Shown here one piece after another: positions 39,649 through 62,743 of a DNA stretch of 64,000 nucleotides. The first letter of the stretch is position 1. The number at the start of each line of letters is the position of its first letter. The notes below the pieces were generated by a model. The model was not told the DNA's origin, ran no database searches, and saw only the letters and a program-made list of their open reading frames with translations. The position numbers were made by a program, and so were the translations under genes. Origin of the DNA: an uncultured Desulfobulbaceae bacterium (GTDB taxonomy: Bacteria; Desulfobacterota; Desulfobulbia; Desulfobulbales; Desulfocapsaceae); contig CBDUGK010000007.1 in NCBI GenBank assembly GCA_965366875.1, positions 758 through 64,757 of the forward strand. The letters are read 5' to 3'.

Positions 39649-39835
39649 AGCGTTGCTATAGAAAGATTATAGATCGGCTCACCACATAATACATGGTAAA
39701 TCTAAGCCATAAATCCGAAACTTTAAGAAAGTTTCAGACCTGCACTTGATTTTTCACCGATCAAGGCAACGTGGGCCGCCGCGGTTCTCGGCCTCACGTG
39801 AACCGCCTTTTCCGGCGATACCCTTTATTGTTAGA
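39633..39835 (-). repeat. possible long attC-like element (copy F)
   Basis: On the minus strand it begins ATCTAAC (fits RYYYAAC) 60 nt after the zinc-ribbon stop and ends GTTAGAC (fits GTTRRRY). The arms do not pair beyond the cores. Internal hairpins GAAACTTT/AAAGTTTC and a GC-rich stem. Confidence 0.3.
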
Positions 39836-39897
39836 TATCCTGGGTGATTTCTAACTATTTCATATTCTGATTCTCTTACGCTTATGGCAAGGTTTGT

Positions 39898-40119
39898 TCA
39901 CTCGGAATCCTTGGATCTTATTCGCTCAAATTCTTGCTTATTGGGCAGGCCAGGATCACCCCAATTGTATTTGCTGCCATTTGAGTTTGTACCAAAGGCT
40001 GAGATCAGTTTTCTAAGATTGCATGATTTGCATTGGGGACAGCAGATTTTTTCTTGAACTTTTGTTAATTCCTCAAAATTACTACCACAATCTCTACACT
40101 CAAATTCATAAATCGGCAT
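39898..40119 (-). CDS. FmdB-family zinc-ribbon protein
   Basis: MPIYEFECRDCGSNFEEL ... CPQCKS (CxxC ... CxxC). Confidence 0.75.
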   Translation of the reverse strand: MPIYEFECRDCGSNFEELTKVQEKICCPQCKSCNLRKLISAFGTNSNGSKYNWGDPGLPNKQEFERIRSKDSE

Positions 40120-40181: not shown

Positions 40182-40316
40182 GCCGAACATTGAGTTAAGC
40201 GGCAAATACCGCAACACGGATTATCCGGTAAAGTACCACCTGAGGAGTCCGGTATACGTTTAATGGTAAGGAGAATGCGCGGAGTGGAATCTGCCAGCGT
40301 AAACGCCTTGTTATGA
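40182..40316 (-). repeat. attC-like imperfect-palindrome repeat (copy A)
   Basis: Plus strand GCCGAAC...GTTATGA. The arms share TTAAGC / GCAAATACC-type boxes separated from the core by a bubble. Central part close to copy D. Starts 8 nt after the tautomerase stop. Confidence 0.6.
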
Positions 40317-40324
40317 GAATATTT

Positions 40325-40528
40325 TTATTTTCCTTTCTTTCTTCTTTGCGTGACAGTTTCTCCACCGATACCCCAACTGTCTGTATCTACCTCTTCAATT
40401 ACAACGACTGTTGTCTCTGGATTTTTGCCAAGTACTGTTTTTAACAGCTCAGTTGCTCCTTCTATTAATTCAGCTTTCTTTTTAGAAGTAACACCTTCAT
40501 TTGTGATTTTAATGTTAACAAATGGCAT
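40325..40528 (-). CDS. 4-oxalocrotonate tautomerase family protein
   Basis: 67 aa, MPFVNIKITNEGVT with the catalytic Pro2 pattern. Confidence 0.8.
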   Translation of the reverse strand: MPFVNIKITNEGVTSKKKAELIEGATELLKTVLGKNPETTVVVIEEVDTDSWGIGGETVTQRRKKGK

Positions 40529-40559: not shown

Positions 40560-40655
40560 GCGATAACTATCTTTTATGAGCACCACCTACCACTGGTTGG
40601 AGAGCTCAGCAAAATACTTCTTGACGGGTTCGCTCAGCATTCAATCCTAAATCCC
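40560..40655 (-). repeat. attC-like repeat (copy B), truncated by an IS remnant
   Basis: Aligns with the left two-thirds of copy E (CTACCACTGG..GCAAA.TAC...TGACG.GTTCG...ATTCAAT). Similarity is lost at about 40655, where the transposase fragment begins. Confidence 0.45.
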
Positions 40656-40659
40656 CGCC

Positions 40660-41140
40660 TTATTGTAACGGGGCCGGTGGCGTGACGCCCAGTTTACTCT
40701 GCTGCATTTTCCTGGTTATAGAGGACAAAAAGCTAAGCGCGATGAACTGCACGAAAAGCTTTCCATCCAGACTTTGTTGCGCTGAGACAGCAAACCGACG
40801 CAAATTCAGTCTCTGTTTCAGGTTATCGAAGGCTTTCTCAACCAGATTCTTGTTCCGGTATATCTCAAGGGCCTTCACCGCTTCCTTTACCTCATCGCTC
40901 ACAAGGGTAAAATAACCGTAATTACGTTTGTCCTCTGCCAGAGCCTCCTCTCTGGCAATAGCCTTTGTGTTTCGGAGCGTTGTGCATTTTACCTCAAAAT
41001 ATCTGGCGTACTGCTTCTCATGATAAGGATGGCGCTGACCGCTTTCAAGCTCCCCCTGCAATATGGCCAGCCGGTTGTTGAAAGCTTCTTCATCTTCAAG
41101 AGCCCGCTCCGGTACATAATAGAGATGAAGATACCTCCGG
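40660..41140 (-). mobile_element. IS1634/IS4-like DDE transposase, C-terminal fragment only
   Basis: EIYRNKNLVEKAFDNLKQRLNLRRFAVSAQQSLDGKLFVQFIALSFL fits the conserved C1 region as I recall it. No N-terminal catalytic part and no inverted repeats identified. Confidence 0.6.
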
Positions 41141-41146
41141 CAATAT

Positions 41147-41300
41147 GGTGAAGGTGTTAACAAAGTCGGCACTGTCACGGTAAAAGCAAAGCTTACCGAT
41201 AACGTGGCAGAGGACGTTGTTTTGATGTACGAGGCCTGGTTCAGAAAGGCAGACTTCAACGTCCAGAACCTGGTAGATGATGAATCTTCTGATATGGGCA
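41147..41300 (+). pseudogene. possible C-terminal fragment of a molybdopterin oxidoreductase
   Basis: Translation KVGTVTVKAKLTDNVAEDVVLMYEAWFRKADFNVQNLVDDESSDMGS resembles the molybdopterin-dinucleotide-binding end of such enzymes. No upstream coding part. Confidence 0.35.
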
Positions 41301-58262: not shown

Positions 58263-58424
58263 TTAATTTGAGCCTCTCGCAAAATGATGATTTTCATTCA
58301 AAATCAAGGCAGGTTTTTCTAAAACAACATAGATTAACATAAGAGTAGTAAATGGTATTGGAATAATCAGGTCTAATAAGGCAAGAATTGACAAATAAAT
58401 CAGTATTTTTGTTTTGGTCTGCAT
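58263..58424 (-). CDS. hypothetical small membrane protein
   Basis: MQTKTKILIYLSILALLDLIIPIPFTTLMLIYVVL. Its 3' end runs into the 41-nt repeat. Weak call. Confidence 0.3.
   Translation of the reverse strand: MQTKTKILIYLSILALLDLIIPIPFTTLMLIYVVLEKPALILNENHHFARGSN
58271..58311. repeat. 41-nt repeat, copy 1 (contains hairpin TGATTTT-CATTC-AAAATCA)
   Basis: 39 of 41 nt identical to 61218-61258, same orientation. Read directly. Confidence 0.8.
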
Positions 58425-58749: not shown

Positions 58750-58882
58750 TCTCAACGGTAAGTTAAGCAGCAAATACCACGATGAGTGCTTCCTGGAAAA
58801 ATCCCCTGTGAGGATTCCAATTAACTTTCAATGGAAATGATTGCAGCCAGTGGTATTTGTCAGCTTAAACGTTTGGTTATCT
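58750..58882 (-). repeat. attC-like imperfect-palindrome repeat (copy C)
   Basis: Plus strand TCTCAAC...GTTATCT. The arms pair as TTAAGC/GCTTAA and CAAATACCAC/GTGGTATTTG, with a 7-nt bubble next to the core. The vapC stop lies inside the right-hand core. Confidence 0.6.
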
Positions 58883-59245
58883 TAATTTTTTATAATTAAT
58901 TTCTAGATCAATAGCAGCTGACTTCAATCTTTTATCAAGCGTCCATAGATATTTTTGAGCCAATTTTGCCGAAGCTAACAGGTGAATATCAATGAAACCT
59001 ATACCCTTACCGTATAGCTTATGTTTTTCTATAAAGTACAAATATTCATCGAATTCGATTTGAGGGGCCATCGGTAAAGCTTGTAATAAGCTAATGATTT
59101 CTTTTCTGTTTTTCAGATTTCCACAGACTAGTTCACCGATGATAAGAGGATGGCAGACAACTTCCCCTTCTAAAAGCAGAAATTGTAAATGTTGGTCGTT
59201 TTTTCTCAGATGATCAATCCAAATTGACGTGTCAACAAGAATCAT
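58877..59245 (-). CDS. vapC: PIN-domain toxin VapC
   Basis: MILVDTSIWIDHL, 122 aa, PIN acidic residues. 2-nt gap after vapB. Confidence 0.85.
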   Translation of the reverse strand: MILVDTSIWIDHLRKNDQHLQFLLLEGEVVCHPLIIGELVCGNLKNRKEIISLLQALPMAPQIEFDEYLYFIEKHKLYGKGIGFIDIHLLASAKLAQKYLWTLDKRLKSAAIDLEINYKKLR

Positions 59246-59247
59246 AT

Positions 59248-59448
59248 TTATTTTGTTGGCCGCCTGCGAGGGATGGGTTTTAGATCTTTTTCTGTCCCTC
59301 CTAACGCAGCAAGGCGTTTACTGCTTTCGCGGGCAATTAACGCTTCAAGACCAAGGTGTACCAAAGATGTTTTTTCCTTGATGCCAGTAAGTAAAGAGGC
59401 CTTTTTCAATATCTGATCATCTATATTTAATGTAGTTCTCATATGCAT
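59248..59448 (-). CDS. vapB: VapB-family antitoxin
   Basis: MRTTLNIDDQILKKASLLTGIKEKTSLVHLGLEALI. The family usually starts at MRTTL, so ATG 59442 is likely. Confidence 0.75.
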   Translation of the reverse strand: MHMRTTLNIDDQILKKASLLTGIKEKTSLVHLGLEALIARESSKRLAALGGTEKDLKPIPRRRPTK

Positions 59449-59478
59449 ATATATGTATCAATCGTGTGCATTTGTCAA
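59449..59478 (-). promoter_or_regulatory. sigma70-like promoter for vapBC (TTGACA, 18 nt, ATATAT)
   Basis: Minus strand TTGACAAATGCACACGATTGATACATATATATGCATATG. The -10 abuts the first ATG, implying a leaderless or very short-leader transcript. Confidence 0.35.
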
Positions 59479-59540
59479 GGATTTGGTTCTAAGAAGATAA
59501 CGGTTAAACCAGACGGAATGATTTCGCATGCATTTTATCG

Positions 59541-60020
59541 TCAGGCACGGTTCAACTCCATTTCAAGGTTATAAGCAGAGCAGTCGGGTATTAAGCCTTT
59601 GTTAACAAAACCAAGTCTTTCATAATAGGAAAGAGCATTAAGAGTGCTCTCCACCAATAATTTGTCGATTTTCAATCGCATTGCTTCTTCTTCGATGAGT
59701 TTAAAAAGTTGAGTGCCGATTGAATTCCCTTCAAAACCTGGCAAAACGTAGAGATGGCTAATGCATCCTGTTTTATTGTAAATTTCAAGCTGAATAGAGC
59801 CAATGATTCTATTATCAGACTTTGCAAGCAGAGTATGATTGTTGGGGTTCTCTAAGGTTTGTTTGAGATACTCAGGTGTTCTCTCACTATAAAATTTGTC
59901 AAAGATTCTTCTCACGTCCTCATGATAAGCCTTTCTTGATATTTCTCGAGCAGATGTCTGTATCACAGTGTGGATTTCTTTGTAATCGGATGATTTTGCT
60001 TTTTCGAATTCAATATTCAT
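59541..60020 (-). CDS. GNAT-family N-acetyltransferase
   Basis: RIIGSIQLE...HLYVLPGFEGNSIGTQLFKLIEEEA (motif A), 159 aa from ATG 60020, which lies 10 nt after the repeat-D core GTTAGGC. Confidence 0.85.
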   Translation of the reverse strand: MNIEFEKAKSSDYKEIHTVIQTSAREISRKAYHEDVRRIFDKFYSERTPEYLKQTLENPNNHTLLAKSDNRIIGSIQLEIYNKTGCISHLYVLPGFEGNSIGTQLFKLIEEEAMRLKIDKLLVESTLNALSYYERLGFVNKGLIPDCSAYNLEMELNRA

Positions 60021-60029
60021 AAATGGTAA

Positions 60030-60161
60030 GCCTAACGGTAAGATAAGCGACAAATACCGCACACGGATTACCCGGCAAAGTACCACTTGAGGATTTCGGT
60101 AAACTTTAAATGGTAAAGATTGCGACCAGTGGTATTTTTCAGCTTGAACGATTGGTTAACT
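60030..60161 (-). repeat. attC-like imperfect-palindrome repeat (copy D)
   Basis: The minus strand starts AGTTAAC and ends with canonical GTTAGGC. Arms pair as AAGC/GCTT and ACAAATACC/GGTATTTTT, with an 8-nt bubble next to the core. Overlaps the relE-like stop. Confidence 0.65.
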
Positions 60162-60423
60162 GATTTTTTTTATAAATTTCTTTTCTGTGTCCTAATTTTA
60201 CTACCCATACCGTTAACTCATAATCCTGGATTGAATAAACAATTCTATAACTCCCTTGACGCAGTCGATATCTCTCTAGACCTGTTAGCTTTTCACTGCC
60301 AACAGGCCTGGGATTGTTTTGAAGAGACTCTACGTTACTTAGAATTTTGAGAAGTTCTTTTTTGGGAACGACTTTAAAATCTTTCTCAACTGATTTCTTG
60401 AAGAAGATTTTATATAGAGCCAT
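60139..60423 (-). CDS. relE: RelE/ParE-family toxin
   Basis: 94 aa: KKSVEKDFKVVPKKE ... RYRLRQGSYRIVYSIQDYELTVWVVKLGHRKEIY. Confidence 0.8.
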   Translation of the reverse strand: MALYKIFFKKSVEKDFKVVPKKELLKILSNVESLQNNPRPVGSEKLTGLERYRLRQGSYRIVYSIQDYELTVWVVKLGHRKEIYKKNQLTNRSS

Positions 60424-60667
60424 TTTTTTTCAATTTTGTAACCATCTGATCGTAGCTAATTAAAGGCTCATCCTTTCTGTTTTCAAATGCAATTATGTCT
60501 TCCGCATCCTCAGAAAGAGCTTCCCTTACAGCTTGATTAACCAAGTCAGTTATTGATCTTGAAGTTTCAACTGCCTTTAATTTTAGTGCCTTGTGAAGAT
60601 CAGGGTCGAAATATATTGTTGCTCTTTTTGCTTGTGTGGCCATAACATCACCTCCCATCAGTGACAC
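60410..60667 (-). CDS. ribbon-helix-helix antitoxin
   Basis: KRATIYFDPDLHKALKLKAVETSRSITDLVNQAVREAL. Likely start ATG 60643. Overlaps the toxin gene by 14 nt. Confidence 0.7.
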   Translation of the reverse strand: MSLMGGDVMATQAKRATIYFDPDLHKALKLKAVETSRSITDLVNQAVREALSEDAEDIIAFENRKDEPLISYDQMVTKLKKNGSI

Positions 60668-60702
60668 TATAGCGTTTTGACGTCAATGTGTCAATTTTCA
60701 AC

Positions 60703-60835
60703 AGTTAACCTGAAGTCGAGATGTGACTACCACTGGATGGACAAACCAGCAAAGTACCACATGACGAGTTCGGTCAATATTCAATGGTAAGGATTCCGCC
60801 AGGTGGCAGGCGGCACTCTTATACGCTTGGTTATA
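60703..60835 (-). repeat. attC-like imperfect-palindrome repeat (copy E)
   Basis: Plus strand AGTTAAC...GTTATAC. The centre (AGCAAAGTACCAC...TCAATGGTAAGGATTCCGCC) is related to copies A, B and D. Begins 10 nt after the broken HigA-like stop. Confidence 0.55.
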
Positions 60836-60844
60836 CGCTTTTTA

Positions 60845-61070
60845 TTAAATTTGAGATTCTAACCCCTTTCTTTCGATACTGTCTAAAAGTTTTTAAAAGC
60901 CCCAGTGGGTTTTTTGTTTCCTTGTTCCCACTTCTGTACAGCTGAGGTGCTCACATTAAAAACACTCGCCAGAGCTGCTTGACTAAGATTGAATTTCTTC
61001 CTATGGTGGTGATTTTTTCTGGACTATATTCTTGTATTTCAGGCAAACAAAGACTCTCGATGTTTTTCAT
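60845..61070 (-). pseudogene. XRE/HigA-like HTH antitoxin interrupted by two 1-nt frameshifts
   Basis: MKNIESLCLPEIQEYSPEKITTI | (R)KKFNLSQAALASVFNVSTSAVQKWEQGNKKPTGA | KLLDSIERKGLESQI in three frames. The second shift is in a TTTTAAAAA run. Confidence 0.45.
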
Positions 61071-61217
61071 TGTAATACTGTCAACCAAGCCACTTTTATT
61101 TAAATCAGTGATTGTTTTGAAATAATGGTGTGTGCAGGCTTAGTTCATAGCAAAAGTTGCAAGTTTGCCTTTCCACCCCAAAAAATAACTGAATACCTTT
61201 AAAATAAAGAACTACAG

Positions 61218-61258
61218 AGCCTCTTGCAAAATGATGATTTTCGTTCAAAATCAAGGCA
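61218..61258. repeat. 41-nt repeat, copy 2
   Basis: AGCCTCTTGCAAAATGATGATTTTCGTTCAAAATCAAGGCA, 39 of 41 nt identical to 58271-58311. Confidence 0.8.
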
Positions 61259-61381
61259 TGCGAAAATTTTACCGCAGGCATATAATTGATATTCCGAGAA
61301 CAAAATTTTTTAGCATAACGTAGAGGTTGAGCGAAAATGGTATTTTGCAAAAGGCTCTACAATAAAGGAAATATAAACGAG

Positions 61382-62743
61382 ATGACACTACCAAGAGATA
61401 TGACCATTGAAAAAGCAATATCTCAGATCAAGAAGCACCAATTAACGAGCCGAGAATTAGTTGAATCATGTCTCGACCAGATAGAGTTGCGTGAGAATCT
61501 CATTCATGCATGGGTTGAAGTATACAAAAAAGAGGCCCTGGAAATTGCCGACACCTATGACGCCGCCTTTCTTAGCGGAAAATGGATGGGAGAACTGCAT
61601 GGAATTCCAATCGGGGTAAAAGATATCATTGATGTTAAAGGAATGTGGATGCGCGCTGGTTGCGACGTTTATCCTGCTGAAGTTGGCAAAGAGGATGCAA
61701 CTGTAGTACAAAAGCTTAAAAACGCAGGAGCTATAATCTTAGGAAAGACGCAGACAACGGCTTTTGCAAACAACGACCCCACTATTTCCAGAAATCCTTG
61801 GAACCTCGATCACTCGCCAGGAGGATCGAGCAGCGGTTCCGGTGCTGCCGTAGCAGATCGTATGTGCCTTGCAGCTTTAGGATCTCAAACAGGTGGCTCT
61901 CTCATTCGCCCGGCGTCCTACAATGGTATTGTTGGATTTAAGCCGACGTACAGTAATATCAGCCTTCAAGGTGTAATCCCCGTATCTTGGAACCTCGATC
62001 ATATAGGATCGCACACTCGATGTGTCTCAGACGCTTTTCGACTTTTTAAGGTAATGTGTGAAAAACATCCAAACCCCTCAATTAGAATGCCTCACGCGTT
62101 ATTGAGTAACTCACCACTTACATTCTCTTCTGCCAGACCACCTTGTTTGGGTTTCATACGGGGATTCATGGAAGATGACGCTTCAAGTGAAATATTACAC
62201 CATATGCAATCCATAGTAGAAAACTTTAAGGATGCAGGTGCGATCGTAGTCGAAATGGAATTACCGGAATCTTTTAAAGAAGTTCATTCAGCTCATACTA
62301 TTATATTTGAAGTCGATTTGGCCACCTTTCACCAACAGTTTTATAAATCGAGTGCGGACAAATATCCGCCGAAAATAAAATCCCGAATCGGAAACGGTAT
62401 GAAAACACTGGGCTATCATTACTCTAATGCCTTGCAGATAAGAAAGAAATTTCAAGATGACATGGGCAAGCTATTATCATCAGTCGATGCCGGATTAATG
62501 CTTTCTTCTCTGACTACAGCACCTCATGGGTTAGAAACAACTGGATCAGCAGCCGCAAACGTGCCTTGGAGTTTTTCCGGATTCCCCGCAATTTCGTTGC
62601 CGTCGGGCCTTGATTCACAAAGATTACCGCTTGGGATACAACTTGTCGGCCCCGCATGGAGTGATGAGTTGATAGCTACCGTTGCCATGTGGTGTGAAGA
62701 CGTGTTGAAATTTGATTTTGCGCCGGAGCACCTTTCGTTCTGA
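61382..62743 (+). CDS. amidase-signature family amidase (GatA-like)
   Basis: GIPIGVKD, GGSSSGSGAAVA signature. Start probably ATG 61382 (the ORF opens at 61337). Confidence 0.85.
   Translation: MTLPRDMTIEKAISQIKKHQLTSRELVESCLDQIELRENLIHAWVEVYKKEALEIADTYDAAFLSGKWMGELHGIPIGVKDIIDVKGMWMRAGCDVYPAEVGKEDATVVQKLKNAGAIILGKTQTTAFANNDPTISRNPWNLDHSPGGSSSGSGAAVADRMCLAALGSQTGGSLIRPASYNGIVGFKPTYSNISLQGVIPVSWNLDHIGSHTRCVSDAFRLFKVMCEKHPNPSIRMPHALLSNSPLTFSSARPPCLGFIRGFMEDDASSEILHHMQSIVENFKDAGAIVVEMELPESFKEVHSAHTIIFEVDLATFHQQFYKSSADKYPPKIKSRIGNGMKTLGYHYSNALQIRKKFQDDMGKLLSSVDAGLMLSSLTTAPHGLETTGSAAANVPWSFSGFPAISLPSGLDSQRLPLGIQLVGPAWSDELIATVAMWCEDVLKFDFAPEHLSF

Follow-up and report, generated by a model that had tools for sequence, protein, structure and literature searches.

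Clusters of attC sites lacking integron integrases (CALINs) comprise two or more attC sites that share a strand and are spaced by less than 4 kb, with no integron integrase within 4 kb, and the authors who defined them also screened 10 kb for pseudogenes (Cury et al., PMC4889954). Large sedentary arrays are, in the operational definition of the same authors, those with more than about 19 attC sites (PMC4889954), and taxon-specific attC models exist, including a 'Deltaproteobacteria' model (Ghaly et al. 2021, PMC8352920). A full-text search of the literature for integrons of the sulfate-reducing Desulfobulbaceae or Desulfocapsaceae returned no description of any. Here we describe a 64,000-nt stretch of DNA (the window) from an uncultured Desulfobulbaceae bacterium of the family Desulfocapsaceae (contig CBDUGK010000007.1, positions 758 to 64,757), in which repeats of about 130 bp separate small genes on the minus strand. 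A reading made beforehand from the sequence alone (the sequence-only reading) had proposed an integron-like cassette array without an integrase. This proposal is supported by a covariance model, by the fold of the repeats, by their association with integrases in relatives and by the cassette boundaries, and we conclude with high confidence that the repeats are integron attC sites and that 58.7-61.1 kb is a short cassette array without integrase or attI, which it either lost or never possessed, that is, a CALIN.

The locus resembles described CALINs in that the array is small (three to four sites), the cassettes are not antibiotic-resistance genes and an insertion sequence (IS) fragment lies beside one cluster; it differs in that its attC sites form a long (~133 nt), lineage-specific family, as opposed to the heterogeneous short sites of mobile integrons, and nothing essential differs (compare PMC4889954). 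Three sites (R3, R2 and R1) lie within 2.1 kb and two more (R5 and R4) within 0.5 kb, those of each cluster on the same strand, and no integron integrase was found within 4 kb, the visible sequence beyond the head of the array extending for 3.2 kb, on a side that consists of amidase backbone. Sedentary chromosomal integrons, such as those with Vibrio cholerae repeats (VCRs), are alike in having long attC sites conserved in sequence and structure within a lineage, interspersed toxin-antitoxin (TA) cassettes and a common orientation, but they hold tens to hundreds of sites, compared with three plus two here, and the window contains no integrase; the locus is therefore not a sedentary integron of the Vibrio type. 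VCRs are about 90% identical to each other, and the window copies are less so (60-76%). The combination of intI, attI and the cassette promoter Pc that makes up a complete integron is likewise not present. Class 1 attC sites share with the window copies the box geometry and nearly the same box sequences (uAAC-5 nt-GUUcAAGC ... GCUUAAC-5/6 nt-GUUAG), one covariance model detecting both, and differ in their length of 57-116 nt, their unrelated centres, their plasmid- or transposon-borne location beside intI1, attI1 and Pc, and their resistance genes.

With this locus, Desulfocapsaceae gain a documented integron attC family as well as a CALIN. Genome annotation should treat the five 'intergenic repeats', along with the intervening small genes, as integron cassettes. 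CALINs are already well known as a kind, and this one leaves the understanding of integrons unchanged, the wider interest being limited to the attC swap on an RHH-ParE cassette that is described below.

Layout and fold of the repeats

The sequence-only reading had pointed out three repeats, and its coordinates were correct to within 1-2 nt, with all three on the minus strand. R1 spans 58750..58882 (R'' AGATAAC, 58882-58876; R' GTTGAGA, 58756-58750), R2 spans 60030..60161 (R'' AGTTAAC, 60161-60155; R' GTTAGGC, 60036-60030) and R3 spans 60703..60836 (R'' GTATAAC, 60836-60830; R' GTTAACT, 60709-60703), scoring 132.8, 128.6 and 106 bits, respectively, with the family covariance model. A repeat finder picked them up independently, and they can be aligned over ~133 nt with a mean column identity of 78% (MAFFT) and are 61-76% identical to each other in pairwise global alignments. 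A 31-nt degenerate pattern drawn from the conserved centre matched the window four times, compared with 0.00 matches expected from 100 shuffles. By profile search the window holds five copies, every one on the minus strand, the two additional ones being R4 (40182..40316; R'' TCATAAC, R' GTTCGGC), which is full length and scores 119.7 bits, and R5 (40563..40670), of which only the centre and the right arm are present (14.4 bits, E 0.12); together they form a second cluster. All five copies follow the strand of the neighbouring gene and lie at or just after its stop codon, as had been stated for the first three, and the stop TAA of vapC sits within the R'' of R1. Likewise, the start of the GNAT acetyltransferase gene soon after a GTT core was borne out, its ATG at 60020 being 9 nt past the R' of R2.

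Read on the minus strand, the copies have the layout R''(7)-spacer(5)-L''(GTT + one bulged base + AAGC)-stem-L'(GCTTAAC)-spacer(5)-R'(GTTRRRY), and this matches the arrangement that defines attC sites, with an R box, an unpaired central spacer, an extrahelical base, an L box and a variable terminal structure (PMC8946536; PMC2727003). The first spacer is CAAAC, CAATC, CAAGC or AAGGC in the full copies and the second is TTACC or a variant of it; the L'' box is GTT-N-AAGC, the L' box is GCTTAAC, and the long imperfect stem reads ...CAAATACCAC / GTGGTATTTG.... The AAC of R'' and the GTT of R' are invariant in the window copies, and the purine and pyrimidine positions are not all canonical. The architecture recognised beforehand is thus present, with its cores ending in TAAC, its paired boxes TTAAGC/GCTTAA plus CAAATACC/GGTATTTG and its terminal GTT core. 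What had been taken for a 7-8-nt bubble is indeed in part unpaired, but is better parsed as a 5-nt spacer followed by GTT:AAC pairing, with one bulged base after the GTT.

We derived the consensus fold and its covariation from 13 distinct family copies, from the window and from relatives. The consensus structure contains 33 pairs, with GTT:AAC and AAGC:GCTT paired and both 5-nt spacers unpaired. The base following GTT (column 21) is bulged in 13 out of 13 copies, and a second extra base on the same (L'') side comes from a 3-versus-2-nt internal loop in the consensus fold. Standard pairs fill 92.3% of the pair cells, compared with 28-43% when the partners are slid by 1-3 columns; double-sided (compensatory) changes occur at six pairs, and the observed covariation score was reached by none of 500 shuffles. 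Folding, one of the checks proposed together with the sequence-only reading, therefore returned the expected hairpin with a bulged L-box base and an unpaired spacer, and the fold of R1 has a z of -3.4.

The sites are unequally preserved. Watson-Crick pairs occupy 20 of the 20 outer-stem positions in R1, 17 in R2, 16 in R4 and 14 in R3, so that R1 is structurally intact and R3 is the most decayed site; the sites beside intI in the relative L003 (see below) have 20/20 outer-stem pairs each. The array looks partly fossilised, and R1 and probably R2 would still be plausible substrates if IntI were supplied in trans.

The repeat family in relatives and in a reciprocal model test

A pattern scan of one-genome-per-species contigs and of metagenomes gave matches limited to metagenome-assembled genomes (MAGs) of Desulfocapsaceae and Desulfobacterales and to Desulfogranum japonicum. 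All family copies with a readable upstream gene are co-oriented with that gene, and the copies begin at or just after its stop, with the exceptions of L005, where the copy lies ~150 nt downstream, and L009, where it lies at the contig end. Given this co-orientation and the start at gene stops, there was no sign of the genome-wide spread typical of miniature inverted-repeat transposable elements (MITEs) or enterobacterial repetitive intergenic consensus (ERIC) sequences, which the sequence-only reading had named as the outcome that would speak against it.

The relative L003 carries two family copies (150.7 and 148.7 bits) together with at least four short attC sites of ~60 nt among minus-strand TA cassettes, and its array begins ~130 nt from a divergent integrase gene. 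The product of this gene, cut by the end of the locus, reaches 271.7 bits with TIGR02249 'integron integrase', above the cutoff of 265, shares 42% identity with IntI1 (the query used being 100% identical to annotated IntI1) and has the IntI-specific segment ALPDAL..KYP..W.W..P...DPRSGVVRRHH. Because these copies stand in an array beside a TIGR02249 integrase, the repeat family supplies attC sites to a real integron of this relative. A recombinase near the family copy of L008 was also considered as an IntI and was discarded, since it is Xer-like and scores 56 bits with TIGR02249, against the cutoff of 265.

The reciprocal test used a covariance model built from the 13 family copies only, which was searched on three plasmid loci around intI1 (L014, L015 and L016; 39 kb). 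The five best matches were all five true attC sites of the class 1 integrons L014 (with aac(6')-29a, blaVIM-2 and aac(6')-29b) and L016 (with arr-3 and aacA4), at 16.8-23.1 bits and E values from 3e-4 to 0.017. Each match spans the whole model and immediately follows a cassette gene, in the orientation of the cassettes, and there was no other match with E<1 in the 39 kb; this includes L015, whose intI1 has neighbours other than cassettes. When aligned, the class 1 boxes have nearly the same sequence as those of the family, UAAC-5-GUUCAAGC ... GCUUAAC-5/6-GUUAG. This was the nearest substitute for the attC-model check that had been proposed, and the family-only model thereby recovered 5/5 class 1 attC sites and none in the cassette-free control locus. 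In the 64-kb window the same model found only R1-R4 (106-133 bits) and the partial R5 (14 bits); weaker matches at 61087-61136 and 61243-61334 (8.8-9.2 bits, E 3-4 window-wide) were rejected as not credible sites.

Related arrays mix the ~133-nt family with short attC types of ~60-80 nt. In L003, an identical two-gene cassette, with products of 98 and 90 aa, occurs twice (L003:783-1348 and L003:2145-2710) with a HigB/HigA-like cassette in between, and is a duplication within the array. Elsewhere, single orphan copies share one common locus in several MAGs or contigs (L002:6736-6870, L007:504-638, L009:4349-4483 and L010:978-1129), after a gene of ~144 aa and before a gene for a 126-aa membrane protein. 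Both cores are mutated in the orphan copies at that locus (R'' CATAAAC, R' GTATGCG), and these copies look like immobilised, fixed cassettes. The GTT core is lost in several single copies of the relatives, having become GTATGCG in L002, L007 and L009 and GAGGGCT in L004.

The integrase gene of a Desulforhopalus MAG (L018:8927-9547 / L019:157-777) is split and is without roughly its first 160 codons, and in L020 and L021 there are tyrosine-recombinase fragments, likewise split, that share 33% identity with IntI1. Decay of the integrase seems to be common in this family, and its integrons are often degenerate, with truncated intI genes, insertions of IS and group II introns, and single orphan attC sites.

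Cassettes, array head and competing explanations

On the minus strand, the array runs from the truncated HTH antitoxin cassette through R3, RHH-ParE, R2, GNAT, a putative, nearly deleted attC and VapBC to R1, with a G+C content of 37-40%, compared with 42-57% in the preceding 56 kb. The cargo named in the sequence-only reading, namely PIN/VapB, GNAT, ParE/RHH and a frameshifted HTH_3/MqsA-like antitoxin, was recovered and is typical of integrons. The first, truncated cassette holds the frameshifted HTH_3/MqsA-like (XRE) antitoxin (60860..61088, minus strand; HTH_3 4.9e-07, MqsA_antitoxin 1.2e-05), a pseudogene with no toxin partner upstream, and R3 is the attC of this cassette. The body of the RHH-ParE TA cassette extends over 60155..60708 on the minus strand, from G|TTAACT to the end of R'', with the RHH antitoxin at 60410-60643 and the ParE toxin at 60139-60423. 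Its near-consensus promoter, TTGACA-17-TATAGT (60694-60666), is kept in homologous cassettes. There follow, also on the minus strand, the GNAT acetyltransferase cassette gene (59541..60020), vapB (59248-59448) and the gene for the PIN toxin VapC (58877-59245), and the VapBC arrangement is found again at 99.4% identity in the metagenome contig L001 (from ERZ25043457). The small membrane protein that had been counted as a further cassette has no attC of its own. The ParE open reading frame reaches 22 nt into R2 and ends inside its L'' box because of one extra A in an A-run (window 60139-60170), which changes the end of the product from ...YKKIS*, as in 88-aa homologues, whose stop TAA lies in R'', to ...YKKNQLTNRSS*.

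In arrays, each cassette begins with the last six bases of the R' before it, and its first bases should therefore complement its own R''. Complementarity is 7/7 for RHH-ParE, between the R' of R3 (GTTAACT) and the R'' of R2 (AGTTAAC), and also for the first cassette of L003, between GTTATGT at the attI junction and ACATAAC. VapBC gives the same figure, with GTTATCT (59501-59495) fully complementary to the R'' of R1 (AGATAAC), if the cassette starts there. This last match suggests that the 'GNAT (+VapBC)' cassette of the sequence-only reading, right as to its genes, would not be a single unit but two cassettes, the intervening GNAT attC having been cut to ~40 nt (putative remnant at 59495..59540, minus strand, ending in GTTATCT). 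The ground for this division is the 7-nt complementarity only, and the spacer between GNAT and vapB gave no match to the family covariance model.

An integrase was sought by tblastn of the 64-kb window with IntI1, the L003 IntI and a Xer-like recombinase, a search that reaches 58 kb on one side of the array and 3.2 kb on the other (head) side; it returned no gene or pseudogene, the best match having E=2.4. Positions 61119-61211 and 61359-62727 of the window are collinear with the amidase locus of the relative L013, to which they are 85-90% identical and which has no cassettes and no attC. The array head lies at about 61095-61119, directly before the truncated TA cassette without a toxin, where it abuts amidase-promoter backbone; since this backbone is shared with L013, there is no attI at that place, in agreement with the earlier remark that neither intI nor attI is visible. 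A comparison with the attI region of L003 revealed no similarity. The sequence GCATAACGTAGAGGTTGAGCG (61303-61324), which resembles the L003 attI junction, was considered as an attI remnant or as the start of the HTH cassette and was rejected, because it belongs to a hairpin insertion of 147 nt and is separated from the array by backbone (61119-61211) that L013 has as well.

The second remnant, at 39.9-40.7 kb, consists of the partial R5, a tautomerase gene, R4 and a zinc-ribbon gene. In place of its R''/L'' side, R5 has the end of a transposase fragment of the IS1634 family (40660-41259), which cuts the site. The cassette gene that precedes R4 belongs to the 4-oxalocrotonate tautomerase family (40325-40528, minus strand), and the FmdB zinc-ribbon gene (39898-40119, minus strand) comes after R4. 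A third attC after the zinc-ribbon gene (39755-39850) was rejected, as this segment has no model match and its fold leaves R''/R' unpaired.

According to established integron biology, the bottom strand of each attC, which is the plus strand of the window, would fold into a hairpin, and an integron integrase would bind its R box, unpaired spacer, bulged base and L box and cut at the G|TT of R'; cassettes would leave the array as circles and re-enter at attI. Since no integrase is present in cis, those of the window would be static unless IntI acted in trans, from elsewhere in the genome or following transfer, and it is in this sense that we infer their present-day mobilisability. The TA cassettes, with their own promoter, probably stabilise the segment. 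As for its origin, we think it more likely that a larger array broke up than that cassettes were inserted singly at secondary sites, because the head cassette is truncated and the IS1634 fragment cuts R5. The signs of decay are one attC nearly deleted, one antitoxin frameshifted, and stems with 14-20 of 20 positions paired.

Several observations weigh against a CALIN made of genuine attC sites. R2, R3 and R4 have 3-6 unpaired positions among their 20 outer-stem pairs; the bulged base of the bottom strand would, to judge from the sequences, be A and not the usual G in R1, R3 and R4; and, across genera, the attC centre (TTACCATTGAA.GTTTACCGGAATCCTCAAGTGGTACTTTGCCGG; alignment columns 48-100, window e.g. 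60070-60120) is better conserved than the integrase-binding arms, which is not usual in attC sites of mobile integrons and resembles taxon-specific families. Moreover, the contig is 83.7 kb long, so that ~20 kb lies beyond the window searched for intI. The array could accordingly be imagined as the distal part or a satellite of a complete integron, with intI outside the window and the cassettes still exchanged in trans. The window shows 64 kb of that 83.7-kb contig, intI accompanies the same attC family in related genomes, R1 is intact and the ends of RHH-ParE are perfectly complementary; further, about half of CALINs occur in replicons that encode IntI (Cury et al., PMC4889954). We nevertheless regard this arrangement as possible but rather unlikely, since the array head abuts the amidase-promoter backbone and does not continue into an attI, the flanking sequence is free of integrase genes for 58 kb in one direction and 3.2 kb in the other, the only intI genes of several relatives are broken ones, and the array shows decay in its frameshifted antitoxin, deleted attC and mismatched stems.

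The sequence of the repeats is unusually conserved across genera, centre included, and single copies stand beside ordinary-looking genes in L002, L004 and L005, as could be expected of a lineage-specific repetitive extragenic palindromic (REP), ERIC or MITE element that is spread by transposition or acts as a transcript-stabilising or terminator hairpin, its likeness to attC being due to chance. We consider this very improbable: the copies show neither terminal inverted repeats nor target-site duplications, they are co-oriented with the readable upstream genes and all but that of L005 begin at or just after a stop, and their ends are of the RYYYAAC/GTTRRRY type, with variable bases that match across cassette boundaries. 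In addition, the family model cross-detects real attC sites, the family adjoins integron integrases, and the T-run signal of a terminator is not present at the repeats. The conserved secondary structure with some covariation and the constant place at the 3' ends of genes would also suit a structured non-coding RNA or a regulatory element in the 3' untranslated region of small accessory genes, an idea to which we give just as little credence. No Rfam family reached its gathering threshold in the window, and at E<=1 over 57.4-61.5 kb the sole match was irrelevant (18 bits, against a cutoff of 117); the structure is that of the attC hairpin, which acts as DNA, and an RNA would leave unexplained both the association with IntI and the behaviour of the cassette boundaries. 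Integron attC sites, arranged as a CALIN, are thus the explanation that we prefer.

The RHH-ParE cassette in other arrays and the flanking hairpin

The RHH-ParE cassette recurs at 81-83% DNA identity in L017, a large array of a Desulfocapsaceae MAG, in L018/L019 of the Desulforhopalus MAG and in L020-22. In L018/L019 it stands first in the array, next to a truncated intI with 50.6% identity to residues 165-330 of IntI1. The search for homologues of this cassette gave at least 1894. Homology between these cassettes and that of the window begins exactly at (G)TTAACT and finishes at the end of R'', and the DNA upstream of the homologous cassettes is unrelated, consisting of other attC ends or of the intI side. 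The comparison of cassettes between genomes that had been proposed therefore showed homology bounded exactly at the recombination point, and a boundary at G|TT is, as far as sequence comparison goes, the signature of integrase-mediated cassette movement.

The cassette differs between arrays in its attC, which belongs to the 133-nt family in the window, whereas L017 and L020 have mutually related attC sites of ~80 nt (GTTTCAC...GCTGAAGCTCGCCGGTGAAC). The final base of R'' (CAGTTAAC|) is the exact point of the switch, when window 60155-60161 is compared with L017:10253-10340 and with L020:860-870 and 2814-2890. Group II intron reverse-transcriptase genes (RVT_1 + GIIM), antisense to the cassettes, are found at L020:968-2813, L021:2483-4330, L022:961-2800, L018:10268-10748 and L017:7189-8619; in L020-22, and apparently also in L018, the intron separates R'' from the remainder of the attC that belongs to the ParE cassette, at the same junction as the switch. 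A like arrangement has been described for group IIC-attC introns, which were proposed to join genes to attC sites (PMC3001079).

The different attC sites of the RHH-ParE cassette might record a natural replacement of the attC on the R'' side, a suggestion that we make from a single swap and consider doubtful. Replacement would occur either through a top-strand (R''-side) crossover by the integrase or through intron-mediated joining of gene and attC. The latter was reportedly proposed by Leon and Roy for cassette genesis. If the suggestion were true, lineage-specific attC families could arise by the re-tailing of existing cassettes and not only by divergence, and the swap touches the question of how cassettes gain their attC and why attC sites are homogeneous within a lineage.

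The hairpin element beside the array (61212-61358) is 147 nt long and perfect-ended, with arms GAGCCTCTTGCAAAAT... / ...ATTTTGCAAAAGGCTC and a DNA fold of -27.5 kcal/mol (z -5.25). By comparison with L013 it is an insertion into the promoter of the amidase gene, placed 25 nt ahead of the start of that gene, with a possible TACA duplication, and it looks MITE-like, unlike the attC copies. Its first 42 nt recur with 95% identity at 58270-58311, the two copies bracketing the array as direct repeats; this 42-bp repeat (58270-58311 / 61217-61258) was considered as an insertion scar and dismissed, as it corresponds to the first 42 nt of the hairpin element. The amidase is apparently called from the ATG at 61337 (468 aa), inside the hairpin insertion, and both a 452-aa homologue and the conserved AAGGAAAT-N8-ATG suggest 61382 as its true start.

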